From: a virus
Lineage: Duplodnaviria; Caudoviricetes
Length of the DNA: 64,000 bases
IMG/VR virus record: IMGVR_UViG_3300042350_003801
Reading direction: 5' to 3' (one strand)
The position numbers were made by a program, and so were the translations under genes. The notes under the pieces were generated by a model. The model was not told the origin of the DNA and did no database searches. It saw only the letters and a list, made by a program, of their open reading frames with translations. Positions within the stretch are counted from its first letter, which is position 1, and each line of letters begins with the position of its first letter. Of the stretch, positions 2,586 through 63,555 are shown piece after piece.

Positions 2586-2634
2586 ATGTTACTGCGTAAA
2601 GTATGTCTGGTTTGATAGGCCCGTCGCTATTATA
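2555..2634 (-). repeat. displaced original 3' end of the 2839-3060 gene; 80-bp imperfect direct repeat of 2858-2937
   Basis: 71/80 identical by manual alignment; encodes YNSDGPIKPDILYAVTFDQNYDDTDE versus YNYDGSIKPDILYAVTFDQNYDDTDE. Confidence 0.95.
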
Positions 2635-2791
2635 GTAACAAAAACCAATAAGAGCCAAAAACTCTATTGATTTTATAGACGCTTCATAGCAGATGCTAAA
2701 TGGTAAATAACCTTTTTAGTCTTAATTCCGCTCCACGTCCGTAATCGGTGTACTCCACCGATACCCGAAAAGTATTAACTAGCCGAGCGTC
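2612..2791 (-). ncRNA. orphan TnpB omegaRNA-like gene (29-nt leader, scaffold, putative guide)
   Basis: 2657-2762 homologous to the tnpB 3' region 55697-55804 with a compensatory stem change; own TAAATA promoter at 2794-2799. Confidence 0.8.
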
Positions 2792-2937
2792 TTTATTTAT
2801 CTAACTTTTGTTTGTGGATAACTGAAAATACTCTATTCTCAGGCGTCCTCATAATCTTCTTCGTCTGTGTCGTCATAATTTTGGTCAAAAGTTACTGCAT
2901 AAAGGATATCTGGTTTGATAGACCCGTCGTAGTTATA
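2635..2937 (-). mobile_element. non-autonomous, tnpB-less derivative of the tnpB element, carrying a recoded host-gene 3' end
   Basis: same junctions (ATGTAT left, TTACTAT right), same leader and same scaffold as 55695-57089. Confidence 0.75.
2794..2799 (-). promoter_or_regulatory. T4-type late promoter (TAAATA) for the orphan omegaRNA
   Basis: GATAAATAAAG directly upstream of the leader; same context as 57004-57009. Confidence 0.7.
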
Positions 2938-3060
2938 CATCTCAGGGTGAAGTCTAGGAGCCGGGGGATAAAACTTGGATGCTATAAATCCAATAATACC
3001 ACCGAGCATTAAAAAGCAAAGAACTAGTAGAACAGTTAGAGCAGTTAGTAGGCTGAACAT
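2839..3060 (-). CDS. small membrane protein with N-terminal transmembrane helix and acidic tail; 3' end supplied by the inserted element
   Basis: hydrophobic N-terminus; last ~32 codons lie within the element. Confidence 0.7.
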   Translation of the reverse strand: MFSLLTALTVLLVLCFLMLGGIIGFIASKFYPPAPRLHPEMYNYDGSIKPDILYAVTFDQNYDDTDEEDYEDA

Positions 3061-3212
3061 TTTAGTTTTCTCCTGAATGTTTTTTAGTTATTTTTAACTC
3101 AATCTTCAGGTGAATTTCTTTTGAAAAAAATGAAACTACCTTAGCAATTCTAAAATTGAATAGTCCCTCCGTTTTTTCCTGCTTTTTACTGCGGAGCATA
3201 AACTCCACACCC

Positions 3213-4429: not shown

Positions 4430-5574
4430 TTAGAGTTTAGTGAAGTTTACAGAGTAGTTTTCGTTTTCTTTAGATTTAAAGAATAGTTGCTGGGTTACAT
4501 TATCCCAACCAAAGGTATTCGGTTGTAGGTCATCAAGAAACTCATCGAGAGTTAACTTATCAGTTTCTCGTCTGTAGAACCAAATAGTGAAACTATCGGG
4601 CTCTTCTTCGGTTTCAATGAATTTCGTTGAAAGTTTTTTTGTAATTTCAAAGAAACCTTCAAAGGGTTGTTGAGTCTCCGCCATTGTCAATCTTTTTAAG
4701 AAGGGTTTCTTGAAGGGTTTTTAGGGCCTCGTATTGTTGGTCAACTACAGAGATATTCTCAATAGAAACAAGAATTTCACCTATTAGACGAATCACTACA
4801 GGCTTTTCAGTTCTAGATGCAAAACTTAGTGCATTGCGAATATGTGAGGCGGCTTCACTAAGTTCTTCTTGCACTCTTTCAGAAATTTGGTTCATTGTTG
4901 GTTTTGCAGGGTTTTGAGTTTAGGATAAATCGTTTCAGCTAGATGATACCGGCCACTATCAAAACTATCATACCAGCCAGCCTCTCTGTTGGAAAGAATT
5001 TCTTCTAGTTCTTTTAGAATAGAATCAAGCATTTCCGGCGGGTTGGGTAGAGATGGAGTTGGGCCGTAATCTGTGATAAGAGACGCTGTTCCAAAAGTCT
5101 CTTTCATATAAACTGGATCTCGGTCTGTTTTTGCCATTGTTTTAGTGAGTTGTGTCTCTGGTAATAGTTGGATAAATTGGTTCAATTTTACTTATGTTGC
5201 ACCAATCTGGTTTTTCCTTAAAGGTGCTACAAAGTTTTTGTTGCTCAGTTTGAGTTTTTGTGGTAAGTTGCCTATGAATGCAGGGAATGAAGACAACTCC
5301 ACAAACTATAGTTGCGGTGATTACATCAATCATCCGCCGAAACAAAACGTTGTGGATGTTGAGTAATTACAGAGTTCCAAACTTCTGGAAACTGCAAGTC
5401 AACTCGCTCAATAGAATATTCTAGAAAGGCAATTGCTGCATCTAATGCTACATCTGGATTTTCAGATTTTTCACGAGTATAATAGAGCATCTGTTTAACG
5501 TGTTCAAAGTTAAACAGAAGTTGTTCCATTTCACTTAATGAATCAAAAGAAGAAATGTAATGTGCGTCAAACAT
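4430..5574 (-). CDS. run of small hypothetical ORFs (4430-4690, 4659-4895, 4892-5185, 5142-5345, 5326-5574)
   Basis: contiguous overlapping minus-strand ORFs; no recognisable motifs. Confidence 0.5.
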
Positions 5575-5576
5575 GA

Positions 5577-6650
5577 TTAAATGAATCCTACAATAGATTT
5601 TGATTTAAGTTGGCTAGAAAAAGGCTGACGATTAAAGACTTCAGCTAGTGAAACCTCTTTTTCAAAAGGTGTTTGTTCAAGTTTAAGAGCCTCGGACACC
5701 GTATTAGCCTGCTGAGCTGTAAGATTCTCAAAATTAAGAATATCAAAGCACCGGCCAGGGCGAATAAGAGCAGGATCAATTTCTTTAACCGAAGGAAGAT
5801 TTGTTGTAAAAATAATCTTCTTATGTTGATTGCTAACTAATCCATCCCCAATATTGAGGAATTTCATAATCATATGATTTCCGTCCTTTCTCGGCCTAAG
5901 GAAAGTGTCGGAATCCTCAAGAACCAAAAGTTGACTATTATCATCACCAATAAAGTTGGCAAAGAAACTATCGTCTTCAAGAATCTTTACATCGTAGGAG
6001 ACGATAGCATTGCTTTTAGTATGTGCAATAAGACCCCGTAGAAATGTAGTCTTTCCGGTTCCAGGTGGACCAATAAGAATGAGAATAGAAGCCCTGGACT
6101 TCATATATTCATCATAATAATCTTCAAGTGACTTTTCACCGAGAAATGGATAGAACTCTTTAATTGGATAGTTGTCAGTTAAAACCGGAAGAGTTATGCT
6201 ATCACCTTTTCGGTTGTAGACCCATTCAATCGATGAAACAACTTCCTCAAAATTATCTTTAAAGAGCTGTTGCACTCTTTGAACCTCTTGCTCTTCTCCG
6301 AAAATTTGAACACTTGTTGAGTTTCGGTGAATAGCGCGAATTTCAATAACACATTGTTCACTCTTAAGAAGAAATGAATATTGCGTCTGCGAAATAACGA
6401 AATCTGGTAAAACCGCTTTTACAAACTCTTTGAGATTTTCTGGATTAGTGTAAAACTTGTAATCGGCCTTAAATACATTTTCTGAATTTTCCCAAGAAGA
6501 GTTGAGGAACTTGCCGAGAATGAAGTCTGAATAACAAATTTCTTGATAAGAGATGGAGTCGTTTGGCATTTCCTTTTTCATTGGTTCGTTCACATCATAG
6601 AACATTTTCGAGCGTGTTGGGTAGTAGGTGGACAGTTTTGTAACCGTCAT
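5577..6650 (-). CDS. AAA+ ATPase
   Basis: Walker A GPPGTGKT, Walker B LLVLED, TTN...IDPALIRPGR second region of homology. Confidence 0.9.
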   Translation of the reverse strand: MTVTKLSTYYPTRSKMFYDVNEPMKKEMPNDSISYQEICYSDFILGKFLNSSWENSENVFKADYKFYTNPENLKEFVKAVLPDFVISQTQYSFLLKSEQCVIEIRAIHRNSTSVQIFGEEQEVQRVQQLFKDNFEEVVSSIEWVYNRKGDSITLPVLTDNYPIKEFYPFLGEKSLEDYYDEYMKSRASILILIGPPGTGKTTFLRGLIAHTKSNAIVSYDVKILEDDSFFANFIGDDNSQLLVLEDSDTFLRPRKDGNHMIMKFLNIGDGLVSNQHKKIIFTTNLPSVKEIDPALIRPGRCFDILNFENLTAQQANTVSEALKLEQTPFEKEVSLAEVFNRQPFSSQLKSKSIVGFI

Positions 6651-8434
6651 AGTTGGTAATAATCGTCTTTTGGCTTGCTCTTTTGAAGTTTAATGAAATC
6701 TTCCGCCCGGTCGTATGAACGAAAAAATATCCTGTGCGGCGGAAAACTGGTTTCCCAATAATCCCAGTACACAAAAAAACGTTTATACTGTGGAACATAA
6801 ATGGTTAAGCCTTCTATGTCTGTTGTTTTTTTGATTCTGTGACTCATTTTTTGGGTTGCGTTTTTTGGAGGGTATAATCTTTTGCTTTTAAAGCATTCCG
6901 TTTAATATATTTTTCCATATCAATTTTATCTTTAAACCAACAAGTCTTCTTTTCGCCCCTATCTGAATGTTGCAGCTCAAATGGAAAGCTCAGATGAAAA
7001 GGCTTTGCATTCGGCTGTTCAACTGGTAGCGGGGCATTTGCAGGAGGATTTACCTTTGTTGTTGCATTGAGATTTCTACGCTTTTTTGCCACTTTCTCGT
7101 CCTGCTTCAAATGCTGCTTTTAACCAAGATAGAAAAACTCTCTCGGCTTCCTTCTTTTGCAGTTCGTCACCATCTTTTAAATAATGGTCACAATCTCCGA
7201 AAAACCTTTCACTCTTAAGAGAGAAATATTCAAGATAATAAAACCATTCGTCAAATGTGCTTTTTGTTTCCATTATCAACCCTCAAAGTCTTTAAATAAT
7301 TTTGATAACGGAGAAATTTTTGAATCGTTGGTTCTACCCCTAGACTCTCACAACAAAAAGTGTAACTAAGGAACTCGAACCAGGGGGCAGTGGAATCAAA
7401 ATCACTCATCATCTTCTTCTTCAGGTTTAAGGTCATAGTAGCACATATCTTCTTCATATCGGTGAAAAATACTACTACACGCCTCAACAAACGAATTTGA
7501 GATTTTCATAACATTCTCGTGACTGTCCTCAAAGTTATTCGTCAAAGAATCAATAAAATCTTCAGAAGGAATTTTAGCAAACAAAAGAGTAAGGGCGGCA
7601 ATCAAATAACCACCAATCCAATGGGCAGGAGAAACATCTCTCATAACTAAGATTCTATCAAAAGTGCTCGGCTCATCTTCTTCTAATTCTTCATCCTCAC
7701 TATAATATGCGATTCTCTGCATTCCGCAGAGCCATACTAATTCCATCATTAGATAGTTTTGCCCGTCGCTATCCAATGGCAATAAGTCTTCTTTTGTTGG
7801 AACCTTTCCACACTGCAAAACCTTAATAATCTCATCTGGAACATCTTCCAGTTCAATGTCTTCATAAAGAGCAGAATCCAGATTATAGCGGCTTTGTAAA
7901 CATTCAATAAACTCAACGGTAAATTCTGATGTGGATTCACTTTCAGCCTTAAGAGAGGCAACCATACTATTCAGTTGGGTAAAATCAAGTTCTTCAGTCA
8001 CAGTTTTGGTTCCTCACTTTTTTTAACATTTTTGACAAGTTCTCTGATAAGGAGACGGTATTCAATTTCCATTCTTAGACGGACTAATGGATTTTTTGGA
8101 TGATTATTCATCAACCACCATAAACCAGCAATCTTAACCCCGAGAAATTTAAGATTAAGAATAATGTATTCGGCAAACCTCGGTTCTATGTAAAGAAGGT
8201 AAAACAAGAAGCCAAAAAAGATTATAAGAGTTTGAAAATAAAGATTCATTTTTTGTGGAGTTTAATTGTTTGCTCTGGGCCAATTTGGACTGGACAATTG
8301 GGAACCGCTTTTCGGAGTTCACGAAAAATATGAACTTTTTGTTTAAGTGATAAGTTAGCAGATTTAACTAATCTTTCAGAAATGTCCACAAGTTGATTGC
8401 AAGTAAGAGTAGTTACAAGTATAAAAGGAAGCAT
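6647..8434 (-). CDS. run of small hypothetical ORFs (6647-6847, 6844-7110, 7076-7279, 7402-8001, 7998-8249, 8246-8434)
   Basis: ORF track; ATGA overlaps. Confidence 0.5.
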
Positions 8435-8446
8435 TATCTTCTGTCC

Positions 8447-9226
8447 TCAAATTTTAATAAACAAGTTTGGATTATAGCCCGTGTTTTGTCCGGGATACCC
8501 GACGGGATTACATATAACCCGACACTCTCCAATTTTGTAATCAAAAGGAGTATGCGTATGCCCGTGGATAAAGTATTTAATTTGAGGGTGTTTCATAATC
8601 AACTCATCTAAATCACTACAATACGCACTATTACACGATGAAGTTTTATACTCATCTGCAACGGAGCGATAACTTGGAGCGTGATGACTAATCACGAATA
8701 CATTCTCTTTGAGAGTTTCAAGTTGATTGAGAAGATAATCCCTACTTTTAAGATGAAAGTTTAGCGTATCTTGTGCCCTCAACTTTCTATAATTGGAACC
8801 AATACGAATGACTTTATAATCATTCATATATTGCTCCGCATCCATCATTTCTATAGGATTTCCATTACGAAAGTTAGTCCATAGAGTGAACCCCACAAAA
8901 GCCCAATCCCCAATCTTAATGGTATCATTCTCTAATAGATGGAAGTTATTGGAAAGATGCGCCCTTAGGGTTTTAAAGGTTCCTTCATAGTTAAATCCGA
9001 AGTGTTCGTGATTTCCTAACACATAAAGAACTTGATTAAAGTTCTTGGAACAATTCTCCAGAAATGTATCGTAAACATTGTGAAGGTACCCATCAGTCTT
9101 AAAATACTTAACCGAAAGAATATCTCCCGCTAAGATTAGTACATCTCCGCATCCTAAATCTGGAAGTATTTGACCAGAAATATAATGGTCAAGGTGGATA
9201 TCCGAAAAGGCCTTAATTTTTATCAT
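8447..9226 (-). CDS. calcineurin-like metallophosphoesterase
   Basis: SDIHLD, AGDI, LGNHE, SHHAP, HGHTH motifs. Confidence 0.9.
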   Translation of the reverse strand: MIKIKAFSDIHLDHYISGQILPDLGCGDVLILAGDILSVKYFKTDGYLHNVYDTFLENCSKNFNQVLYVLGNHEHFGFNYEGTFKTLRAHLSNNFHLLENDTIKIGDWAFVGFTLWTNFRNGNPIEMMDAEQYMNDYKVIRIGSNYRKLRAQDTLNFHLKSRDYLLNQLETLKENVFVISHHAPSYRSVADEYKTSSCNSAYCSDLDELIMKHPQIKYFIHGHTHTPFDYKIGECRVICNPVGYPGQNTGYNPNLFIKI

Positions 9227-9451
9227 CTTTAAGTTCGGTAATTTCTTCCTGAATCCGACAATGGAGTTCTTTTAGTTGAGTTGTAGAAACATCATAGTCG
9301 TCAAACTCATTATACTTTTTAATTGACTTAATTGCCACGGAAAGGCAATAATCAAGATTTTGGAGGTCGTTCAAATTAAGATTCATAGTTCTTTCTTAAT
9401 GAAGAGTTGATGGTTACACCCTACTAGATTTCGCTGGGTTGTGGGTATTTA

Positions 9452-9474
9452 GTGGACGGTTTGGGTACTGTCAC
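9452..9474. repeat. dispersed palindromic motif GTGGACGGTT-N5-ACTGTCAC (one of at least 12 variants)
   Basis: variants at 10057, 18561, 20002, 22485, 27069, 27159, 28483, 28611, 30826, 31135, 32089, 59632. Confidence 0.8.
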
Positions 9475-10001
9475 AAGTCGTTAAAAAGAGGAACGAACAA
9501 CAAAGTCTTACCGTCGTTCAATAAGGTATGCATACCAATTAGTTCATAAGTGGCATCACTGGCGGCATCCCAGGCGGCATCCCAGGCGGCATCCCAGGCG
9601 GCATCCCAGGCGGCATTCCCGGCGGCATCCCTGGCGGCATCCCAGGCGGCATTCCCGGCGGCATCCCTGGCGGCATCCCAGGCGGCATTCCCGGCGGCAT
9701 CCCTGGCGGCATCCCAGGCGGCATTCCCGGCGGCATATCCGGCGGCATATCCGGCGGCAGCCCCGGCGGCAGCCCCGGCGGCATTCCGGGCGGCAGACCA
9801 GGCGGCATTCCCGGCGGCGGAATCTAGGGCGCGGTAGCGGCGGGCAACCTCTTCCCATTGGTCAGCGGTAAGACTATCCATAAACCGCCAGAAGTTCAAG
9901 ACGGTTTCGTAGTTTGGTCCTAGAAAGTCTTGTGGGTTAGTAAGAACTTCTGGATTTTCTAGTTCGTTGGCGAAATTTTGATGGGCTTTGGAGTAATTCA
10001 T
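9471..10001 (-). CDS. Ala-rich repeat protein, paralog 1 (22 AAxx units)
   Basis: conserved N-terminus YSKAHQNF...FLGPNYETV and C-terminus ATYEL...VPLFNDL shared with three other ORFs. Confidence 0.85.
9555..9818 (-). repeat. 12-bp tandem array GCCGCC-NGG-NAT, 22 units, with a 36-bp higher-order period
   Basis: read directly from the sequence. Confidence 0.95.
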
Positions 10002-10490: not shown

Positions 10491-10539
10491 TGTTTTAGTT
10501 CTTTAACTATTATGAGTATACCACACCATCTTGATTTTG

Positions 10540-11340
10540 TCAAGCCCCCTGTGCCACTTGTCCAGATGGCTCGGCAATGCGCCCGTGATAAGGATTAAAA
10601 TCTGTGATTTGTTCAAGAGAAACCTGTGCTCCCATTTGAGACCAGAAATTAAAAATGCCATCATAAGAATTGCGATGAAATAACTCTAAATGGTCACTAT
10701 GTATTGATGAGCCCATATCCAACTTATATAAGAAAAGCGGGCAGGCATACGTCATACCAGCATTATAGATTAGGTCATCTGCGGTTGCTCTTGGTTTTAC
10801 TCCATTGTCTAATTTATATTTGTCATCCCTAATGTGTAGGTCAATAAGTTTTTTTGCATACCTGCGTGTAATGATATAACAGGCAGTGGAAAAACTGTTG
10901 ACGAATCTTGTATGAATTGGAACACTGATATCACCGGTTGAGATAATTGCAAGTTGAATACAATCCCAGGCATAAGGAACTCTGCCAATAAAATCAGCAA
11001 AAGTGAAGTTCCAGAAGCGAGCAATGCTAATGTCTACATCATCTTCCATAAAAAGAGCATAAGGAGACTCAGAAGTTTCATACCACTCCTTGATTGCTTT
11101 TAGATGACTACAAGTGCAACCGATTTCACCACTTGTCATATTCTCTGGATAGGTTCCTCTTAAGATTTCACTAAGATCAGATACTCTCCCATCATATGCA
11201 GAGATTCTTGTGTAGTTTTCAATTTCCCAATAAGAGAACTGCTCCTCCATATATTTACGACGGTTTTCCTGATCATCTAGATTAATATAATAGATTGAAG
11301 GAAGATTCTTTAGTTTATATGCTGATTTGTTGGTGTCCAT
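10540..11340 (-). CDS. glycosyltransferase family 25 (LPS biosynthesis-like)
   Basis: YYINLD...RR, GEIGCTCSH, FMEDD motifs. Confidence 0.85.
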   Translation of the reverse strand: MDTNKSAYKLKNLPSIYYINLDDQENRRKYMEEQFSYWEIENYTRISAYDGRVSDLSEILRGTYPENMTSGEIGCTCSHLKAIKEWYETSESPYALFMEDDVDISIARFWNFTFADFIGRVPYAWDCIQLAIISTGDISVPIHTRFVNSFSTACYIITRRYAKKLIDLHIRDDKYKLDNGVKPRATADDLIYNAGMTYACPLFLYKLDMGSSIHSDHLELFHRNSYDGIFNFWSQMGAQVSLEQITDFNPYHGRIAEPSGQVAQGA

Positions 11341-16579: not shown

Positions 16580-17368
16580 TTATATTGTCTTCCAGGACTC
16601 CCTATATATTCCGGTTGAATCTGCTTCCAGCATAGACTTTCCGAACCACAGTTTAGGTGCAACAGTCTTTTTGCTATTTGCCAAATAACTTCCCCACCAC
16701 GAAAAAGAAGAGTTGCAGATAATATGATAAGAACACATACTCTGCAGACATAAATCAACCGCTGTTGTATTATTTTCCGAAATCAAAAATCTATCAACCC
16801 CAAAGAGTTCCTGTTCATAGCACCATTGATGGTCATCCGAAAATACAATAACAGGTAAAGAAGAGTCAAAATGCTTCAAGGCATCTTCATAATAAGACAT
16901 TGGCTGAAGAGGGTGGTTAGGATTATTAACATAGTCACACCTTCGGATGTGTAAAGAGATGTATTCTTCATTGCCTAGAAGATTTCTACAAAGACCTTGA
17001 ATTTCTTCAGAGAACGTAAAGTCTTTTCTAATTTCCTCTTCAATATGTTTGAAGTAGTTCTCGTTTTGAAAGTAGCCAAGAAGATTGGTATTATCTGGGC
17101 AATTGTCAAACAGATTTTGGTCAAAGTTAAATGTTGACTCAGTAACCGTTTGATAATCAGTGATACTATATTTTACTCCGCTAAATTGAAAAGTGTTGTA
17201 AATATTGGCATCAGAGTGTCTGACGTTTAAATCAGTTTGTCCTGCAACATTTGGAGATGGAATACAAAAGTCAAATCCTCTATTTCTTGCAATACCCCTA
17301 AGAGATGCATACTGAAACATCTGATTGCCGAGTCTTCCAAGATTTGCTAAATTGTTAAATGAAATCAT
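16580..17368 (-). CDS. alpha-1,2-fucosyltransferase (GT11)
   Basis: GRLGNQMFQYA, GYFQ, HIRRCDY, FSDD, NSSFSWW. Confidence 0.9.
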   Translation of the reverse strand: MISFNNLANLGRLGNQMFQYASLRGIARNRGFDFCIPSPNVAGQTDLNVRHSDANIYNTFQFSGVKYSITDYQTVTESTFNFDQNLFDNCPDNTNLLGYFQNENYFKHIEEEIRKDFTFSEEIQGLCRNLLGNEEYISLHIRRCDYVNNPNHPLQPMSYYEDALKHFDSSLPVIVFSDDHQWCYEQELFGVDRFLISENNTTAVDLCLQSMCSYHIICNSSFSWWGSYLANSKKTVAPKLWFGKSMLEADSTGIYRESWKTI

Positions 17369-17808
17369 AAGTCGTTAAAAAGAGGAACAAACAATAAGTC
17401 CTTACCATCGTCCAAAAGCGTGTGCATACAAATTAATTCATAAGTTGCATCACTGGCGGCATCCCTGGCGGCAAACCCGGCGGTGTCCCTGGCGGCATCA
17501 CTGGCGGCATCACTGGCCGCCCGCCAGGCGGCCGTGGCGGCAGCATCAGCGTCAGCTCCGGCGGCATCCCAGGCGGCATCCCAGGCGGCATTCCAGGCGG
17601 CATCCCTGGCGGCAACCCTGGCGGCAAGGGCTAGGGCACGGTAACGGCGAGCAACTTCATTCCATTGGTGTCTCGTAAGACCGTCCATATACAACCAGAA
17701 ATTCAGGACGGTTTCGTAGTTTGGTCCTAAAAAGTCTTGTGGATTTGTTGGGGCTTCAAGGTTTTGAAGGCGGTTGGAGAACTTTTGATGGGCTTTTGAG
17801 TGATTCAT
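17365..17808 (-). CDS. Ala-rich repeat protein, paralog 2
   Basis: same termini as paralog 1; about 14 repeat units. Confidence 0.85.
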
Positions 17809-18927: not shown

Positions 18928-19548
18928 TCATAAGTATTCGGGTGGGTCATATGGTTCCTGGAACATTTCTCGGGAGCGCATTTTTATTGCTCTTTGAGTT
19001 ATTGCATCTATAGAGGAATCTTCAACAAATCTGATTGCTAAAAGAAGTTCCCCTTCTTGTATTGTATTTAGTTCGGGATGACTGCTACTCTTAAATGGAA
19101 TCCAACTTGAACTAAAAATCATTTTTTGTTGAAGAACATCTCCATTGGGTCTATTCCGGTTTTTAAAATTGCACAAGCTCTTTTATAAAACTGACAATCT
19201 GTTTTTCCAGATTCTTCTAAAACGTCTTTAATCTTTTGCCAGTTTTGGCGGGTATGGTCATCCATTTGATTAGTGCATTGAGTTAATTTTATCTTCATAT
19301 TCTTGAAAAATATTCATTTCCCAATAATCAAACTCCTCGTGAATTTTATATACTGCATCCTTGTATGCTTTTTCAGTAAGACAACCAGGATTTTGATAGA
19401 GGACTTTCAGTTGTTCAAGAGCATTTTGAAGGCCTTGAATATATTCAAAACGATATTTGCGGTCATTATATTGCTCTAAGGTCTCGGTTACCCCATCTGG
19501 GTATTGAAACGTTTCTGTTTGAGAATTAAATGTAATTTGGTCAGTCAT
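18928..19548 (-). CDS. hypothetical ORFs (18928-19176, 19270-19548)
   Basis: ORF track. Confidence 0.45.
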
Positions 19549-20024
19549 AAGTCGTTAAAAAGAGGAACAAACAATAAGTCCTTACCATCGTCCAAAAGCG
19601 TGTGCATACCCATTAGTTCATAAGTGGCATACCCGGCGGCATTCCAGGCGGCATTCCTGGCGGCATTCCTGGCGGCATTCCAGGCGGCATACCCGGCGGC
19701 AGACATGGCGGCAGACATGGCGGCAGCCCCGGCGGCAGACCCGGCGGCAGACCTGGCGGCATCGTCTAGGGCATGATAACGGCGGGCAACTTCATTCCAT
19801 TGGTTCTCGGTAAGACCATCAATAAACCACCAGAAGTTAATGACGGTTTCGTAGTTTGGTCCTAGAAAATTCTGTGGATTTGTTAGGGCTTCAGGGTTTT
19901 GAAGGCCGTTGGAGAAGTTTTGATGTGCTTTAGAATAATGCATCTCTCGCTTTGTTTCATTGTATAAACAATAGCACAAACCGCGAGCATTGGGCGAAAC
20001 AGTGGACGGTTTTGAAACTGTCAC
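19545..20024 (-). CDS. Ala-rich repeat protein, paralog 3 (true start probably MHYSKAH near 19943)
   Basis: same termini as the other paralogs; 11 repeat units. Confidence 0.85.
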
Positions 20025-26990: not shown

Positions 26991-27214
26991 TTAATGAAAA
27001 GAAGTTTTGGGTATTTCCTTTCATTGCCTATTTATCATACACTAAAACTGGGGTTGCGGGAGAAGCGTGTGCCAGTTTGGGAGGTGTCTTAAATGTGGCT
27101 CCAATGTTTTTGAAACCTTGGTTACCTTAGGATATTTAAGCGATTTTGTCAAGGGGTAGTGGACGGTTGGGGGAGTGTCTACTTTTTATTTTGATATTTT
27201 TTGATGGGACGTAT

Positions 27215-27637
27215 TCACTCTGGTATATTTAAATAATCTTCAGCCATATGTATTTTTACTTTTTGATTACTTTTCGGTTTGGATAATCTCAGTCCAAGCC
27301 ATTTTTCACACTTGTTGGGGTTAACATAATAGCATTTATCCGTATCTGGACAATAAATGCACATTAAATCTAATTCATTTTTATCGTAATCTTTATGATG
27401 TGAGCCATTTCTGTCGGCCCAAGATGTTCCAAAACGTACATTAATTACGTTATTATTAGCCGCTCTATATTTAACTTGAACTCTTTTAAAAATGCCGTCT
27501 TTATACGCGACTAAATCAAAAGATTCGTGCTCTGTATGCGGGGTAAGAATTAAATAACCCTTTTCATACAAATCAAGTTGGGCTTTTAACACACCAAGGT
27601 CGCCTTTATTTTTAGTATGGTGATACCTCATACTCAT
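27215..27637 (-). CDS. PD-(D/E)XK endonuclease of the group-I-intron-associated type, free-standing
   Basis: KGDLGV...FDLVAYK...RVQVK motif and length resemble I-Ssp6803I-like enzymes. Confidence 0.8.
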   Translation of the reverse strand: MSMRYHHTKNKGDLGVLKAQLDLYEKGYLILTPHTEHESFDLVAYKDGIFKRVQVKYRAANNNVINVRFGTSWADRNGSHHKDYDKNELDLMCIYCPDTDKCYYVNPNKCEKWLGLRLSKPKSNQKVKIHMAEDYLNIPE

Positions 27638-27645
27638 ATTCTCCT

Positions 27646-27736
27646 TTATTAAGTTCGCATTTCTATTTATAAAAATGGGGAGGTTGAACCTCCCCGGAGC
27701 CTTAAAGGTGCGAACTTAATAAGGCATCTCTATTTA
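27646..27736 (-). promoter_or_regulatory. double late promoter with a 14-bp antisense arm and an internal terminator-like hairpin
   Basis: TAAATA at 27731-27736 and 27664-27669; inverted repeat 27646-27659/27709-27722; hairpin 27677-27695. Confidence 0.75.
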
Positions 27737-27756
27737 TAGTAGAAGAATAATTTCAA

Positions 27757-28041
27757 CGAGAACGGCGTGACTCGAACACGCGACTTACTGCTTAGCTTAC
27801 CACTACGGATTTCCCCGCCATTTCTGTTTGTGGTCTGGACCATCTCTTCATCTTATCTTACGACTTAGATGCTTCCCGTATGGCCTCTACACGTTCAGGA
27901 TTTCTCCCGCTTCGCTCGGGATTGCCATAGTCTTACGACTTTAGGGTTCCCCGAATTTGAGAAGTTACATTTATGAAGTTTCCCTCGTAAAGCTCCTATT
28001 TTCGAAGGCAGTTGTTCTAAATCCAACTGAACTACGTTCCC
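27757..28041 (-). tRNA. tRNA-Arg (UCU), split by a group I intron (exons 28041-28005 and 27795-27757)
   Basis: acceptor GGGAACG/CGTTCTC; spliced loop CT-TCT-AA within stem ACTGC/GCAGT. Confidence 0.9.
27796..28004 (-). mobile_element. group I intron (209 nt, no ORF)
   Basis: core elements AAATTCGGGGAA (P), GGCAATCCCGAGC (Q), GTAGAGGCCATACG (R), AAGAGATGGTCCA (S); U-G at the 5' splice site; terminal G. Confidence 0.9.
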
Positions 28042-28173
28042 ATAATAAAACCCGAAATAACTCGGATTATGGTTTATTTAGTAAGAATCAAAAACACCCC
28101 AAATAACACAAAACGCTCCGGACGCTGAACCGGCACAGTTAAGCACCTGAACACCTATTACAATAAGTCAGGC

Positions 28174-33479: not shown

Positions 33480-34670
33480 TTAAAGTTTAAAGTTTGCAAA
33501 GGCTGTAGGACTAACATCTTGTTTAATTCCACCAACAACATAACTCGAGATATTCTCTTCTTGTGGTGGAACTTGTTCATTTCTACTATTTAACCATTTC
33601 TCGGTCCAGGGTAATGGATTATTCTTAGATGAAATATCATACAGGGGTTTAAATCCAATGGCTCGCATTCTACGATTGGCAATCCATTCAATGTAATTGC
33701 AAAGTAGTTTTTCGCTGAGTCCGATCATTGATCCATCTTTAAAAAGGTAATGAGCCCAATTTTTTTCTTCATTTACCGTATTTTCAAACATACGGTAACA
33801 AAGTGCTTCTTCTTCTCTGGCTATCTGAACCATATCTAGGTCATCGCCATTTCTCCATTTAGTGAGGATATTCTGAGTTAAGAATAGATGAAGTCTTTCA
33901 TCAAGGGCAATTTTAGAAATAATTTTTGCCGAACCTTCCATTAGTTCGCGTTCGCCAAATGCGAAACTACAGGCAAAAGAGATATAAAAACGAATGCCTT
34001 CTAAAATGTTAACATTCATCACCGCCCGGTAAAGTTTCCGCTTTAGTTCATAAAGCTCTTGCTTTCCCAATGGAACTCCTTCATTATTAAATTTCCATAG
34101 TTCAGATGAACCATACTGTTGAGCAGAATTAATAAAATCATCATAAGATGCAGTAACACTAGATGCTCGCTCTAGAATCTTCTCATCATCAATAATGTGG
34201 TCAAACACTTCTGACGGGTTGCTGGTATAGACATTCTTAATAATGTATGTATAAGAATAACTATGAACCATCTCCATAAACTGCCAGGCAATCATACAAG
34301 ATTCTAGTTCTGGCAAAGAGCAATAAGGAATGAAAGCCATTCCTGGACCTCTTCCTTGAACTGAATCCAACATAATCTGATACTTCAGATTGGAAGTAAA
34401 AATATGCTTTTGATATGGAGAAAGTTTTAAATAATCAGTGCGATCTTTTTGAAGTGGAAACTCTTCTGGTCTCCAAAATGCACCCAGTTGATCCTGCGTA
34501 AGGCGATAAAATGCAGGATATTTATGGACATCATATCTTTGAACTCCTAGGGGTTTCCCAAAGAACATTTTCTCTTTTGTTGTATCTACGTTTGTTGAAT
34601 TAAAAACGGTCATTCCCGTAACCTCAGATGCTACATCCTTCACAATAATCCTCTCCTTCACTTGTTTCAA
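33480..34670 (-). CDS. nrdB: ribonucleotide reductase class Ia beta subunit (true start may be slightly downstream)
   Basis: FWRPEE, LDSVQG, EMVHSYSY, LEGIRFY, DERLH. Confidence 0.95.
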   Translation of the reverse strand: MKQVKERIIVKDVASEVTGMTVFNSTNVDTTKEKMFFGKPLGVQRYDVHKYPAFYRLTQDQLGAFWRPEEFPLQKDRTDYLKLSPYQKHIFTSNLKYQIMLDSVQGRGPGMAFIPYCSLPELESCMIAWQFMEMVHSYSYTYIIKNVYTSNPSEVFDHIIDDEKILERASSVTASYDDFINSAQQYGSSELWKFNNEGVPLGKQELYELKRKLYRAVMNVNILEGIRFYISFACSFAFGERELMEGSAKIISKIALDERLHLFLTQNILTKWRNGDDLDMVQIAREEEALCYRMFENTVNEEKNWAHYLFKDGSMIGLSEKLLCNYIEWIANRRMRAIGFKPLYDISSKNNPLPWTEKWLNSRNEQVPPQEENISSYVVGGIKQDVSPTAFANFKL

Positions 34671-37434
34671 TAGTATTAATCAAATTTTCTAGTTCGTTTA
34701 CCTGTTCAAGTTCCACTTCAGCAGAATCAGAATCCTTCTTACTATCGTATGTATTATGATAATACAGCGTCTTGACCCCCATCTTGTATGCATAAAGAAC
34801 TTCGCCGAGAATAAGACTCATTGGGACTTCCTTATCGGGGAACATCTCTGGATTGTATGCAGTATTGGCACTGATTGACTGGTCAATAAACTTTTGAAGA
34901 ACCGCAACAATGTTAAGATAACCAATATTAGACGGGGCATCCCATAGTAGACTATAATTATTCTTTAAAGATGAATATTGTGGAACAATTTGCTTAAGTC
35001 TACGCTTAACCGATAGATGTTCTCTTGGCATTTCAATACCATTTGGGGCATTTAACATCAGGCTTGATGATTCACCGGGCATCGCACAACTGAGAGTAGA
35101 ATGTCTCAAGCCATATTGTATAATGTCTTGCCGCAGTTGTTCCCAATCGTGCTGTAGTGGAACCGAACAAATTTCATCAACATCTTTCTTGTAAGTATCA
35201 ATAGGAAGAATACCATCTGCATACTTCGTTCTACCAAAGTATTCACAATGGCCGCGTTCTTGTGCAATCTTATTAGATGCCCTTAAAAGGAAGTATTGAA
35301 TACTTTCACCCAGTCTATGGCAACTATCCCAGGCCGATTGTTCGTGATAAGATTGACCAAGTTTAGCAAGATAGTGAGCCAGACCCATAATACCAATTCC
35401 TAGAGACCTTCTCGCCCTTGTTGAAATTTCCGCAGCCTTAACAAGATAATCTTGCCATTCAATCAACTCTTCAAGAGCCCTTACAATCAATTCACAGCAC
35501 TCCTCTAGTTCCTTATCGTTTTTGATTGTTCCAACATTCAGTCCTCCGAGAATACACAAAGAAATTTCTGCCAGTTCATCTTCAAGGCTTTGAATAGGAT
35601 GAACCGGCAAAGTTACCTCGACACAGTTATGAACCAAAATTCCATTTGCAAAGAAGTTATGCGTTCCCTCTACTGTAATGTCATAGACTGGGATTTCTTC
35701 TTCTAGGTATTCAATAGTTCTATATTTATTTTTAACTTTTTTAATTCCATCATCCCATAGAACAACTAGCTGATCTGTCCCCTGAATATCTTTTGCCTCA
35801 ACATACCCACGATTTTCTGTGAAGACTTTATGCTCAGGTGTTAAAATAACCCGACCATCATTAAGAGACAATACTTTCGCGCTGGGAGATGTTTGAGCAA
35901 ATGCTGTGATTGGACTCCAAACTCTTTCACCTTTTTCAGTATCGTAAGAAAGAACTTGAATTTTAGGAACATCGCTTTCTTTGCGAAATGAAACCTCTCT
36001 TTCTCTATCGAGAAAATAATCCTCCAACTCTCGAATCTCAATTTCAGCACTGCATAGTTCCCAACAGGAACCAATGGATACTGGATACTCAATTCTAATT
36101 TTGGTGTCACCAGCAACACAGAGGTTGCTCATACTAATATGGTCTTTAAAAGAACTATGAGTATTGCAATGGTCAATATTCATAATGTAAATGCGACCAG
36201 TTTCGCTTCTTTCTTTGAGAATATTCAAAATAAGTTCCTGGGCTTTTACTTTACGCTTAGGAATAGTCGGATCATTCTCATATTGAACATAAAGGTCATC
36301 AAAACGTTCAGTTCCAAACGATTCTTCTAGATTGGGAACGTGGTGAGGAGAAAATAGAGTAATTTCTCCATCTTGAATATAACGCTCATAGAATAGTTTT
36401 GAAATCTTGATTGCATAATCAATATTTCTCACTCTGTTTTCATCATTGCCCTTATTATTCTTAAGGACAATAATATCTTCAATCTCTTGATGCCAAATGC
36501 TAACGTATGCCGTCATACTCCCTTTTCTTACGCCACCTTGATGGCAAGATTCAAGAGACGCCTGAAACTTTTTAAGATATGGAATCAAACCCGATGAAAT
36601 AACTTTACCCTTACGAATTTTACTCCTAATGCCACGAATTTTACTAACGTCAATACCAACACCGGCTCCACCTGAAACGTATTTCATCATTGCTCCATCA
36701 GATGCAATGATGCTGTCAAGTGTATCATCTACATCAATGAGACAACAAGATGCAGCCTGCTTATCTGGCGTTCTGACACTTGCCATTACGGGTGTGGGCA
36801 GATTAATCTTATGCTTACTTACAACCTCATAATAACGCTTAACATATGATAGCCTTACATCTTTTGAATAATTTGCAAAGATTGTAAGAGCAATCATAAT
36901 ATACATAAACTGAGGCGTCTCGAAGACCTGTTTAGTATCACGGTCTTGAACAAGATATTTATCTTCAGCCTGCTTAAGACCAGCATAGGTGAAAAGAAAA
37001 TCTCGGTCGTGGTCAATGAAAGAATTTACGGTATCAATTTCTTCTTTTGAATATTTGGTGTAAATATCTGCATCATAATATTCTCGGGCAATGCAAAAAT
37101 TAATATGTTCTTCAAGATGTGGCATATCAATACGGCCACCGTATAAACGCTTACGAATAGAAAAAAGAAGCAATCTAGCCGCAACATATTGATAATTTGG
37201 ATGGTCCAAACTGATTAAATCCGATGCAGACTTAACAAGAATCTGCTGAATTTCATCAGTTGTAATTCCAGCATAAAACTGAAGACCAGAGTTCATTTCA
37301 ATCTGCGAGGCAGATACATTGGCCAAACCAACGCAAGCACAATTCACCATATCGTGAATTTTTTCTAGCATCAATGGCTCAACATTGCCATTGCGCTTAA
37401 CTACAGTAATACCATTGCTCATTTTTTCTTCCAT
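34624..37434 (-). CDS. nrdA: ribonucleotide reductase class Ia alpha subunit, with intein
   Basis: N-terminal ATP cone (VVKRNG), SNLC...E, MPGESSS, C-terminal CEGC. Confidence 0.95.
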   Translation of the reverse strand: MEEKMSNGITVVKRNGNVEPLMLEKIHDMVNCACVGLANVSASQIEMNSGLQFYAGITTDEIQQILVKSASDLISLDHPNYQYVAARLLLFSIRKRLYGGRIDMPHLEEHINFCIAREYYDADIYTKYSKEEIDTVNSFIDHDRDFLFTYAGLKQAEDKYLVQDRDTKQVFETPQFMYIMIALTIFANYSKDVRLSYVKRYYEVVSKHKINLPTPVMASVRTPDKQAASCCLIDVDDTLDSIIASDGAMMKYVSGGAGVGIDVSKIRGIRSKIRKGKVISSGLIPYLKKFQASLESCHQGGVRKGSMTAYVSIWHQEIEDIIVLKNNKGNDENRVRNIDYAIKISKLFYERYIQDGEITLFSPHHVPNLEESFGTERFDDLYVQYENDPTIPKRKVKAQELILNILKERSETGRIYIMNIDHCNTHSSFKDHISMSNLCVAGDTKIRIEYPVSIGSCWELCSAEIEIRELEDYFLDREREVSFRKESDVPKIQVLSYDTEKGERVWSPITAFAQTSPSAKVLSLNDGRVILTPEHKVFTENRGYVEAKDIQGTDQLVVLWDDGIKKVKNKYRTIEYLEEEIPVYDITVEGTHNFFANGILVHNCVEVTLPVHPIQSLEDELAEISLCILGGLNVGTIKNDKELEECCELIVRALEELIEWQDYLVKAAEISTRARRSLGIGIMGLAHYLAKLGQSYHEQSAWDSCHRLGESIQYFLLRASNKIAQERGHCEYFGRTKYADGILPIDTYKKDVDEICSVPLQHDWEQLRQDIIQYGLRHSTLSCAMPGESSSLMLNAPNGIEMPREHLSVKRRLKQIVPQYSSLKNNYSLLWDAPSNIGYLNIVAVLQKFIDQSISANTAYNPEMFPDKEVPMSLILGEVLYAYKMGVKTLYYHNTYDSKKDSDSAEVELEQVNELENLINTIETSEGEDYCEGCSI
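35626..36120 (-). mobile_element. 165-aa mini-intein in NrdA
   Basis: NL|CVAGDT ... LTPEHKVFT ... FFANGILVHN|CVE; no endonuclease domain. Confidence 0.95.
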
Positions 37435-38393: not shown

Positions 38394-38804
38394 TCATCCC
38401 CTGTCAAGGACCCTTATCATAGCACGTTCCGCTGGTTTTGTCAAGTCCCCCTTAAAAAGGCCGATGATTGGAGGAAGGGCAATGAATAAAAAATTCAGGG
38501 CTAAAACGATACCAATGCCAATATTAACCTTATCCTGCAACCCTTTAATTACACCCAAAACCTCTTCTTTATCAGTATTCATTTTTGTAGTGAGCCCTCG
38601 TATCCCCTCTTCTACCTTTCGGTTAATATCATCTCCCCTTTGTTGCTGCTGTTCAATTTTTACTTGGTGGACAGCAAAAAGTTCACTGATTCTTACGTTT
38701 ACCTTGCTAATTTCCGAGATTGCTTCTCTTAGCGTTGCCATCTCCTTTTCACTATTTTCCTGACTCCTTTCAAGTAGAGCCAAACGAACAGATTCTTCTT
38801 GCAT
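38394..38804 (-). CDS. coiled-coil protein with a C-terminal TM helix
   Basis: heptad pattern followed by a hydrophobic segment. Confidence 0.6.
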   Translation of the reverse strand: MQEESVRLALLERSQENSEKEMATLREAISEISKVNVRISELFAVHQVKIEQQQQRGDDINRKVEEGIRGLTTKMNTDKEEVLGVIKGLQDKVNIGIGIVLALNFLFIALPPIIGLFKGDLTKPAERAMIRVLDRG

Positions 38805-40480: not shown

Positions 40481-40639
40481 TCAGACTTTGAGTTCAGAAC
40501 GAACGAATTGAACTAGAGCATTATCAATCTTGTTATCAGTAGAAGCAGCATAACGCTCAAGAAGAGCAACTACTAGGGCACGGGCTTCCCTGGAATCCCA
40601 GAACCACTTAACAACAACGCCAGCGAATTTGGTGAGCAT
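40481..40639 (-). CDS. 52-aa hypothetical protein (MLTKFAGVVV...), not in the ORF track
   Basis: translated by hand; GGAG and a late promoter upstream. Confidence 0.55.
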   Translation of the reverse strand: MLTKFAGVVVKWFWDSREARALVVALLERYAASTDNKIDNALVQFVRSELKV

Positions 40640-40670
40640 AATTATATCTCCTTAGTTAGGGTATAATTAT

Positions 40671-41063
40671 TTAGGAGTTTTGCACTCTCCTCGCTGCCCG
40701 TTGCGCACTTCTTGCTCGGGCTTTTTCAGCTTTTTCTCTTTTCTCTTTCTGTGTAGGATCTTGTCGTTGGGCAGCTAGAATTTCGGCGGCTTTAGCTAAT
40801 TTTGCATTTTTGTCTTGTTCAGCGGTTTGAGATGCTTGTTGGGCTTCTCTCTGTCTTTTAATGTCTAGCTGAGCCGCCGAGGCAGTAGTTCCGGTTCCAG
40901 CAGGTAGATTTGAAAGGCGTTGGGTTCTATCTTTCTCTTCTTTACTTCTTCTCGTTGAAGAGACATTTATTGTTCCGTGTGCTCCCCGTAGAAACCGCCC
41001 AGAGCCTTTAATATCTCTTTGAGATGCGTGAGCTTCACCAAAAAACTGTTCAAATGTTTTCAT
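40671..41063 (-). CDS. basic protein with a capsid-targeting-like N-terminus
   Basis: MKTFEQFFGE start; Arg/Ala/Gln-rich. Confidence 0.6.
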   Translation of the reverse strand: MKTFEQFFGEAHASQRDIKGSGRFLRGAHGTINVSSTRRSKEEKDRTQRLSNLPAGTGTTASAAQLDIKRQREAQQASQTAEQDKNAKLAKAAEILAAQRQDPTQKEKREKAEKARARSAQRAARRVQNS

Positions 41064-55165: not shown

Positions 55166-55683
55166 TTAACCTAGATCTTGTAAAAAACCCGTTTCAAGAA
55201 ATGCCTCTTGTTCCATATCAACAATAGGTGTTGCAAACTCAATAGGAGGATTTGCAGTTTCAAACGTTTCAGTGCATAGACCAAAAAGTTCAATAAGGGT
55301 TAGAGTATCTGTTACATCAATTGCCTTTAGGTCTTTTTCAATTACCCAGTCTTGAAATAGGTCAATCTCTTTCCAGGGGTCTTCGGAATAACCCCACGGT
55401 GGTTTAATGTCATTCATTATGCAGCTCCAGTTTTTAGAAATTCGGGTAGACCCTTATAAAGGCTATAGGCATACTGCCGTTGCTCTTCGGTTAGTGAATC
55501 TTGATGCAGTTCACTAAACTCCCCGGCGGGCTCTTCTCCTAAAAGGTCCATAACAATGTTTGGCTTCCAGTTGTCATATGCAAAAGGATTCTGCCAAGTT
55601 GAGTCTTCGGTTAGATTGTTATAAAAAACTGTTGCAAGTGTAGCCAGGTCGTCGGTTTGATTTCGGTTCATAATTAACTCCAT
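55166..55683 (-). CDS. two acidic hypothetical proteins (55166-55417, 55417-55683) between gp44 and gp62
   Basis: ORF track; the RBS of the upstream one lies in the gp44 remnant. Confidence 0.55.
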
Positions 55684-55694
55684 TCGATTTCATA
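55674..55694 (-). pseudogene. displaced original gp44 3' end (TAT GAA ATC GAA TGG AGT TAA = YEIEWS*), occupying the putative guide position
   Basis: matches the current gp44 end YELEFSG* at peptide level; abuts the element end TTAC. Confidence 0.75.
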
Positions 55695-55804
55695 GTAAAA
55701 AACTCTATTGATTTTCTAGACGCTTCACAGCAGATGCTAAATGGTGAAAATCACCGCTCAGTCTTAATTCCGCTCCACGCCCGTAATCGGCGTACTCCGC
55801 CGAT
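55695..55804 (-). ncRNA. cis omegaRNA scaffold overlapping the tnpB 3' end
   Basis: hairpin ATCGGCG/CGCCGAT; GGGCGTGGAG...TGAAGCGTC pairing typical of IS200/IS605 right ends; homologous to 2657-2762. Confidence 0.8.
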
Positions 55805-56901: not shown

Positions 56902-56913
56902 CCGCTCTGTTTA

Positions 56914-57009
56914 TTGGTTGGCAATACTATTTAGTAAAGTTTTATTTTATAAGGGGAGAATTGCTCCTCCCCACCTGAAAAGCGCCAACCAACCAGGCAT
57001 CTTTATTTA
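56914..57009 (-). promoter_or_regulatory. double late promoter / antisense leader module of tnpB
   Basis: TAAATA at 57004-57009 and 56928-56933; hairpin 56953-56972; TTGGTTGGC (56992-56984) complementary to GCCAACCAA (56922-56914). Confidence 0.7.
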
Positions 57010-57065
57010 GTGAAGTTTTAACAACAAAAAACATAATGCACAATATAATTTTCAAGTAAGTTAAG

Positions 57066-58055: not shown

Positions 58056-58587
58056 TAAAGAATTTAAGGTCTTCTTCTGTCATAGAGACATCATTCTCCA
58101 CCTTAACTTTAGGTCCAATAAAATCATTGATTCGTTGAATTCTTGTTTCAATGTCTTTTACATCAAGATTATGAAGTTCATAATTTCCGGTGAAGTCAAA
58201 CAGTGGAACAAAGGTTAGAGAATCACCCCGTTCAAAGAGTTTGTGCATACCCATTAGTTCGTAAGTGGCAGCCCCGGCGGCGGCAACGACACGCCGATCG
58301 GAGGCGGCATACCCGGCGGCATACCAGGCGGCATTCCCGGCGGCAGCCCCGGCGGCATACCTGGCGGCATTCCCGGCGGCATTCCTGGCGGCATAGTAGG
58401 TGGCATAGTCGGGGGCATCATAACGGCGGGCAACTTCATCCCATTGGTTCTCGGTAAGACCATCCATAAACCACCAGAAGTTAAGGACGGTTTCGTAGTT
58501 TGGTCCTAGAAAATTCTGTGGATTTTTTAGGGCTTCAGGGTTTTGAAGTTCGTTGGAGAAGTTTTGATGTGCTTTGGAGTAGTTCAT
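58030..58587 (-). CDS. Ala-rich repeat protein, paralog 4, with an extended C-terminus
   Basis: same N-terminus and ATYELMGMH motif as the other paralogs; inserted between gp45 and gp44. Confidence 0.85.
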
Positions 58588-63166: not shown

Positions 63167-63366
63167 TCATTCCTCTTTCGTTTTCTAATATTTTCAAGTA
63201 GTTCTTCTAGAGCGCGATTTTGTTCTCTCAATTTCTCGGTTTCTTCTCTTATCTTGATTTCTTCTTCTCTTAATCGTTTTGTTTCTTCTCTTAGCCTGAT
63301 TTCTTCTTCTCTTAACGATAACGTCTTTTCTCTAAGAGCCCGTATGATTCTATTTGATTCAAACAT
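63163..63366 (-). CDS. short coiled-coil protein made of 7-aa repeats
   Basis: REEEIRL REETKRL REEEIKI REETEKL REQNRAL. Confidence 0.55.
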   Translation of the reverse strand: MFESNRIIRALREKTLSLREEEIRLREETKRLREEEIKIREETEKLREQNRALEELLENIRKRKRNE

Positions 63367-63555
63367 TTATCCGTCTTTTTATCTCATAGGAGACTAGCAT
63401 ACTATCTTGATTTTGTCAAGCCCCCTATGGTATTGTCAGCATTTACTCACGTAGTATTTCTACCTATTGACAAACTCTTTAAAGTCTGCTACGCTCCGCT
63501 TTGTCAAAAGTGATAAACCAGTAGTATTCAATAATATTAAAGAGTATTAAAGTCA

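Follow-up and report, generated by a model that had tools for sequence, protein, structure and literature searches.

A 64,000-nt stretch of IMG/VR phage DNA (hereafter, the window) holds two copies of one ωRNA scaffold: one overlaps the 3' end of a tnpB gene, and the other stands alone some 53 kb away. The stand-alone copy raises the question of whether it is the remnant of a tnpB element that decayed in place or a unit in its own right, whose guide RNA could serve a TnpB encoded elsewhere. Our judgment tips, modestly, toward a non-autonomous, protein-free miniature of ~200 to 300 bp, derived from a tnpB element family of large freshwater phages.

Anatomy of the miniature and of the full element

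Pairwise alignment, BLAST, and a covariance model agreed that 2657 to 2762 (minus strand) is homologous to 55697 to 55804, as the first-pass annotation of this DNA had claimed. The BLAST match between the miniature and the tnpB-linked scaffold spanned 108 nt at 88.9% identity (E = 3e-33), and the covariance model scored 139.8 and 116.1 bits at the two copies, compared to 16 bits for the next best position in the window, where these are the only two scaffold copies. The core alignment therefore stood, but the feature itself proved larger than claimed: homology to the element family reaches 3' to position 2633, taking in an extra hairpin arm and TTAC-TA, and a promoter-like motif lies at 2800 to 2794. 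Because the miniature retains the 3' arm of the terminal hairpin, its scaffold is 2633 to 2762 rather than 2657 to 2762. The claim of an ωRNA scaffold copy without tnpB was likewise upheld. The miniature consists of a promoter-like motif, a 29-nt left-end leader, a complete 130-nt right-end scaffold, and its own guide (Table 1), with both element ends retained, no protein gene, and a stop in the former reading frame.

The TnpB of the full element contains the Pfam domains HTH_OrfB_IS605, OrfB_IS605, and Cas12f1-like TNB. It aligns with the ISDra2 TnpB-ωRNA structures (PDB 8exa and 8h1j) over 354 residues (E = 1e-72), with the catalytic motifs GIDLG, LED, and HDRD and both CxxC pairs present. 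Its dN/dS relative to family members (0.058 to 0.08) indicates that the nuclease is under constraint. As in ISDra2, the scaffold overlaps the 3' end of the gene. The functional ISDra2 scaffold is ~116 nt long, similar to the 112 to 130 nt kept here, and the ISDra2 target-adjacent motif (TAM) is TTGAT, compared with a predicted ATGTA for the phage element (see below). The RNA sequences are unrelated at the Rfam level: a search with the phage scaffold gave no Rfam match up to E = 10, and perhaps this ωRNA lineage is simply uncurated there.

The full element lies in a T4-like replication module (gp44 lid domain, gp45, and family-B polymerase). In complete copies of the family, the scaffold runs past the tnpB stop codon into an A/U-rich hairpin and ends in TTAC-TA, after which the sequence is unrelated across ~12 loci. 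The tnpB copies at the gp44 locus (55693 to 55720, minus strand, and L007, L008, and L010) have lost the 3' arm of this terminal hairpin, with a ~20-nt deletion between GTTTTT repeats. TnpB is still under purifying selection; the terminal hairpin may serve mobility rather than nuclease function. The same difference counts against use of the resident TnpB in trans: the miniature has this hairpin, the scaffold of the resident TnpB is without it, and 11% of the sequence differs between the two, so compatibility of this TnpB with the miniature is only presumed. Protein search also placed a 90%-identical TnpB on a contig of 250,336 nt, equal in length to the contig that the window comes from, and this genome may thus have a further tnpB besides the one 53 kb from the miniature.

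Table 1. Features of the miniature, the full element, and their insertion sites (positions in the window)
Feature	Position	Strand	Sequence	Remarks
ATAAATA promoter-like motif (P1) of miniature	2794..2800	-	ATAAATA	homologous to CTAAATA, 57004-57010
29-nt leader of miniature, left-end derived	2763..2791	-		5' arm and closing stem of tnpB riboregulator; partnerless here
ωRNA scaffold (right end) of miniature	2633..2762	-		five helices including terminal hairpin; ends in TTAC-TA
Predicted guide of miniature ωRNA	2613..2632	-		first 20 nt of right flank; displaced 3' part of small membrane-protein gene
Right copy of 83-nt duplicated gene segment	2552..2634	-		guide template; holds DUF6433 gene start at 2585
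Left copy of 83-nt duplicated gene segment	2855..2937	-		functional 3' end of 73-aa gene (2839-3060); intact ATGTA ahead
tnpB, 398 aa	55705..56901	-		Pfam; RuvC D/E/D and zinc-finger cysteines present
ωRNA scaffold of full element	55693..55804	-		overlaps last 33 codons of tnpB; without 3' arm of terminal hairpin; ends in TTAC-TA
Predicted guide of full element	55673..55692	-		variant of gp44 gene tail and next gene's ribosome-binding region
Left-end regulatory cassette of full element	56902..57010	-		P1 CTAAATA, leader, GC hairpin and T run, P2 CTAAATA, anti-leader segment, ATG
Miniature right junction			GTTAC-TA-TAATAGCG	is the guide template
Empty site in relatives			ATG-TA-TAA...	guide match varies by relative
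L170 and L171 empty sites			ATGTA, then guide match	18/20; no mismatch at positions 1-6
Resident functional copy			ATGTA kept	mismatched at guide positions 4, 5, 6, and 14

Scaffold structure and the left-end cassette

Across 18 homologues, a structure of five helices and 41 pairs was 97.5% paired, compared with 37 to 52% when the 3' partners were slid, a covariation signal to be read with the caveat that the scaffold of full copies is also coding sequence up to the tnpB stop codon. Five pairs had changes on both sides, and the observed values were reached in 0 to 1 of 500 shuffles; the fold of the miniature itself had a z-score of -4.1. The base changes previously listed between the two copies in the window were recovered in the alignment. 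The hairpin ATCGGTG/CACCGAT corresponds to ATCGGCG/CGCCGAT, GGACG and GGGCG each pair with CGTCT (A-U versus G-U), and the short distal hairpin is preserved despite its differing sequence (GGT/ACC versus GGTGA/TCACC). What could not be sustained was the reading of the compensatory swap as selection after the loss of tnpB. The hairpin 1 variant of the miniature is identical in L070, a full-length, tnpB-linked copy, so the C-G/T-A swap predates the miniature and reflects divergence among tnpB-linked copies, in which the sequence is also coding, rather than post-loss selection. The miniature in the window and a second one in the phage L005 are mutual closest relatives (89% identity); with the distal hairpin re-registered, every pair survives their 14 differences, and two double changes fall in the distal hairpin of the L005 copy. 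These two sequences, a small sample, are suggestive of structure-preserving change specific to the miniature lineage.

The leader of the miniature matches 56973 to 57001 upstream of tnpB with 10 differences, all transitions, and its closing stem carries the compensatory change that had been described (CCTG/CAGG versus CTCG/CGGG). Its assignment to the guide RNA, on the other hand, had to be given up. Upstream of tnpB, full copies share the order [C/A]TAAATA (P1), leader with a 4- to 5-bp closing stem, GC hairpin plus T run, a second [C/A]TAAATA (P2), ~25 nt, and ATG. The leader loop is complementary over 8 to 14 nt to the segment between P2 and ATG, in a sequence that differs from element to element, and in five of six cases complementarity of this length was reached in 0 to 11 of 500 shuffles. 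The leader of full elements thus pairs upstream of the tnpB start codon; for that of the miniature, no pairing partner above chance was found. Since the miniature has P1 and the leader without the partner segment, the leader is a vestige, an orphaned riboregulator arm, and not part of the guide RNA. Most scaffold differences are transitions, as are all of those between the leaders at 2763 to 2791 and 56973 to 57001; mutational bias or tolerance of G-U pairs is possible.

The stand-alone copy had also been credited with its own late promoter. A promoter-like motif is indeed present, and motifs of this kind are positionally enriched: of 41 cases of [C/A]TAAATA, 20 lie 8 to 60 nt ahead of an ORF start (3.9 expected at random), TTAAATA and GTAAATA show no such enrichment upstream of starts, and CTAAATA falls on the coding strand in 25 of 26 cases. 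The designation "late" is by analogy to the T4 motif TATAAATA only. T4-type late promoters carry a TATAAATA-like motif whose distance to the late gene downstream is fixed, and they depend on gp55, and the start regions of T4 intron-encoded and free-standing endonucleases are hidden in read-through transcripts and exposed in late-promoter transcripts. The tnpB gene is wired into the same late-promoter and hairpin control as these classical phage homing endonucleases, "late" again being by analogy.

The same cassette (promoter, leader, GC hairpin, and second promoter; 27630 to 27750, minus strand) was observed upstream of a PD-(D/E)XK endonuclease gene (PF11645; 27215 to 27637, minus strand), where leader and anti-leader are complementary over 14 nt. 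This suggests that tnpB and the PF11645 endonuclease, both selfish nuclease genes, share a late-expression riboregulator. The endonuclease gene lies just downstream of a tRNA-like gene (~27755 to 28045, minus strand) seemingly split by a group I intron (Rfam match at 27814 to 28014); the tRNA intron and the adjoining endonuclease would represent a collaborative-homing arrangement. A TA inside ACTAAATA was considered as a left recombination core and dropped for lack of proof; upstream of this TA, independent insertions show partial sequence conservation.

Predicted target sites and other loci

In relatives, a single gene for a 73- to 76-aa membrane protein overlaps the DUF6433 gene at its end. 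The window has two copies of an 83-nt piece of that gene end, one on each side of the insertion, and the right-hand piece supplies a 20-nt guide sequence that is unique within the window. The closest element-free relatives are L170 and L171, with 95% identity in the neighboring protein. Relative to L170, the resident functional copy has eight differences, four of them within the first 7 of 81 nt (post hoc binomial P ~ 0.003), and this clustering in the seed is the only respect in which it stands out. The idea that the left copy is a foreign allele was rejected, both copies lying within population diversity (10 to 13 differences per 81 nt in every comparison). A search of IMG/VR for an exact guide target found none, the best site having 2 mismatches in 20.

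The right junction of the tnpB locus is ATTATG-TA in relatives without the element (L153 and others). Both loci with clean empty sites thus have ATGTA where the element is inserted; these are two loci only, the third (L004) being a mosaic in which no TAM is readable. On this evidence ATGTA is the putative TAM, from which the element end ACTA differs at -3. The full element is flanked by a 13- to 35-nt duplication of the gp44 tail, shorter than the 83 nt at the miniature, and ten other loci gave no convincing flanking duplications. Of the two ends, only the right one is precise. The fuzzy left boundary and the 83-nt flanking duplication are predicted by neither IS605 nor IS607 transposition and are counted against the explanation that we favor below.

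The miniature is found at other loci as well. A scan with a 16-mer spanning its internal junction returned 56 chance matches and one true match, in IMG/VR phage L005, where TTTTCGGGT is again joined to ATCGGTGG, here between two unrelated genes at a structural-gene locus. In metagenome X9, a 92 to 96% identical relative has the miniature at the same site as the window and, in addition, a second miniature left end joined at window position 3075, with 3075 to 3207 at double depth. Scaffold depth in X9 was 4,500 to 8,900, compared to 640 to 690 for the flanks (7 to 13 times), and contigs with many different flanks break at 2630 to 2633, consistent with a sharp right end. Among ~85 homologous loci in relatives, none had element sequence at the locus of the miniature. 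The same junction at other loci, together with the absence of a full element here in relatives, indicates that the element arrived as a miniature. The earlier statement that it is no decaying scar was therefore borne out as far as local decay is concerned. The extra left end in X9, known from Logan contigs only, would be a further insertion with a flanking duplication of ~133 nt. In L005 (4520 to 4560, minus strand), the guide template AACCCTATTGCCCAGTCATT matches at 17/20 positions the opening codons of the downstream structural gene, which lie 34 nt beyond it; here, too, the guide resembles a nearby functional gene segment.

An independent protein-free derivative, L003, has its start 4 nt ahead of hairpin 1 and immediately after [C/A]TAAATA. 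On the right it is flanked by sequence homologous to the upstream region of a gene at 40.6 kb in the window (40610 to 40730, minus strand). This scaffold-only cassette (L003, 6970 to 7115, plus strand) lies 16 nt ahead of the ribosome-binding site of a gene.

Pattern scans for the scaffold core found 16 IMG/VR loci and 5 metagenome loci. A GTDB scan of 185,579 prokaryotic genomes found 0, and thus no host copy was seen. By protein search, the family comprises >100 TnpB clusters at ≥75% identity, several of them on contigs of 240 to 250 kb and three on a single contig of 243,166 nt. Among INPHARED phages, the near search was empty and the distant search returned only tnpB fragments of unrelated phages. 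The stretch occurs in lake-water metagenomes, and 24 of the 24 sequencing runs that contain it are DNA. In L001, a resolvase-type serine-recombinase gene, tnpA (PF00239), lies directly upstream of tnpB and overlaps it, which points to IS607 ancestry; the remaining tnpB copies, including that in the window, are without tnpA. A second, distantly related tnpB (L002, 4940 to 6127, plus strand) was observed 1.7 kb from a family copy on the same 127-kb phage contig.

Proposed working, alternatives, and known systems

The explanation that fits best as a whole, and to which we give slightly better than even credence, is that the miniature is a guide cassette that homes into related phages by means of TnpB supplied in trans. 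Through an internal deletion, the first ~37 nt of the left end (the promoter-like [C/A]TAAATA and the leader) would have come to adjoin the final 130 nt of the right end. The [C/A]TAAATA-type promoter would then transcribe the leader, the scaffold, and the adjoining 16 to 20 nt of flank, and TnpB from a full-length copy would bind this RNA in trans. The complex is predicted to cut co-infecting relatives whose membrane-protein gene is uninterrupted and whose guide match, as observed, directly follows ATGTA. The carrier would be spared: there, the guide sequence comes after the element end ACTA, and the functional gene copy has mismatches to the seed. Repair of the cut genome by recombination with the carrier would then bring in the miniature and the replacement gene tail, a homing step proposed on the model of TnpB in IS605/IS607 elements and of T4 homing endonucleases. 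On this view, the miniature would be at once a parasite of the nuclease and a weapon against rival phages. A wider proposal, which we offer tentatively and rate below an even chance, is that ~250-kb lake phages run an RNA-guided homing or competition system. One or a few tnpB genes would serve several promoter-driven, protein-free guide cassettes, each at a conserved gene end, each with a guide-resistant tail, and each targeting the uninterrupted allele of rivals.

The strongest competitor, although on our estimate an unlikely one, is that the miniature is an inert hitchhiker: a deletion derivative moved by the illegitimate or promoter-mediated recombination of T4-like phages, with no functional guide RNA and a structure that is intact only through young age. 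The flanking duplications of 83 and ~133 nt do look like recombination products, and the fuzzy left boundaries, the lost pairing partner of the leader, the inheritance of the compensatory changes from full-length copies, and the lack of a perfect target in IMG/VR all fit this account. It is harder to reconcile with the miniature family and L003: these are independent derivatives without a protein gene, and each retains, behind [C/A]TAAATA, precisely the complete scaffold (hairpin 1 through TTAC-TA). The unbroken pairs between the window and L005 miniatures despite 14 differences, the sharp right end at many flanks, and the mismatch of the resident copy specifically in the guide seed (four of the eight L170 differences in the first 7 of 81 nt) argue against it as well.

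Mobility could instead be the work of the serine-recombinase TnpA of the family, acting in trans on a MITE-like element whose ends were kept as recombinase sites and whose ωRNA is incidental. We consider this improbable, since tnpA is absent from the window and from beside any family copy other than L001, and since flanking duplications and non-conserved left junctions misfit conservative serine recombination. Moreover, the retained part of the left end is the promoter and riboregulator common to an unrelated homing-endonuclease gene, not a demonstrated recombinase site. The L001 arrangement, with a resolvase-type tnpA directly upstream of a family tnpB, nonetheless speaks for such a route, as does the invariant TA after TTAC at ~12 independent right ends. 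This TA is common to the target at both empty sites and is compatible with an IS607-like core dinucleotide; the MITE-like reading is, however, compatible with guide function as well. Least probable of all, and in our view very doubtful, is a domesticated expression cassette whose promoter and structured leader mainly drive or tune the downstream DUF6433 gene, the native promoter region having been displaced. Relatives express the same gene without the cassette, and this account leaves the conservation of a five-helix nuclease scaffold and the sharp TTAC-TA end unexplained, even though the right end lies within 1 to 50 nt of a gene start in every case and no terminator follows the guide.

Protein-free ωRNA elements have already been described in bacteria, and the miniature is a phage-borne variant of them. 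PATE-like minimal IS200/IS605 elements of Geobacillus stearothermophilus encode ωRNAs for use in trans (Meers et al., PMC10055086); like the miniature, they have no protein gene, keep the left and right ends, the scaffold, and a locus-specific guide, and presumably use TnpB from another copy. The miniature differs in its setting, a virulent-type, T4-like large freshwater phage rather than a bacterial chromosome, and in its left end, where a phage promoter and riboregulator arm take the place of a TnpA-bound hairpin. Its insertion brings a replacement tail for the interrupted gene, flanked by the 83-nt duplication, and its family is without Y1 tnpA, one member having a serine recombinase. In the IS607-family CboIStron, TGGG and TCGG differ at -3 (Zedaveinyte et al., PMC10690162). 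The phage family resembles it in that the L001 tnpA overlaps tnpB, a constant dinucleotide closes the right end, and the scaffold end is similar to the target-adjacent motif except at -3; for both, the role proposed is homing driven by TnpB. The phage elements have TA/ATGTA in place of GG/TGGG, most copies are without tnpA, and there is no intron. IS607 elements are characterized by the absence of a target-site duplication, whereas here duplications of 83 nt flank the miniature and 13 to 35 nt the full element.

The free-standing homing endonucleases of T4-like phages (seg and mob, with I-TevI-type control) are likewise sited between or at the ends of conserved genes, with a late-type promoter and a hairpin that hides the start in read-through transcripts; sequence differences protect their carrier allele, and co-infection is where they are expected to spread. 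Target recognition by the miniature would be by RNA, and the miniature encodes no nuclease. A 2026 review raises TnpB homing into co-infecting phages only as a possibility, and our literature search found no description of protein-free TnpB guide cassettes in phages. Bacterial stand-alone ωRNA elements have been inferred before, and natural use of TnpB in trans is not yet demonstrated. Here, the sequence reveals the carrier, a near-matching empty target, a resident copy with mismatches in the seed, and a nuclease that is intact and constrained, making the miniature a concrete, testable case of RNA-guided homing between viruses, which bears on how single-guide systems could grow into multi-guide systems. 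If the homing or competition reading is true, this would be the smallest known self-propagating homing element (~200 to 300 bp, no protein), a natural split gene drive.

Several further repeats and insertions were observed in the window. The ORF between gp44 and gp45 is one member of a paralogous gene family with 12-nt tandem repeats, in which 300-nt blocks are 71 to 83% identical (9434 to 9983, 17364 to 17790, 19544 to 19925, and 58188 to 58569). The gene for the ribonucleotide reductase large subunit (34624 to 37434, minus strand) contains an intein (PF14890). Repeats of the form GGGGCTTGACAAAATC...TATACT occur on the minus strand at 466 to 496, 10518 to 10553, 27123 to 27153, 38419 to 38449, and 63357 to 63429; with their conserved upstream GGGG, they have the look of sigma-70-type early promoters.
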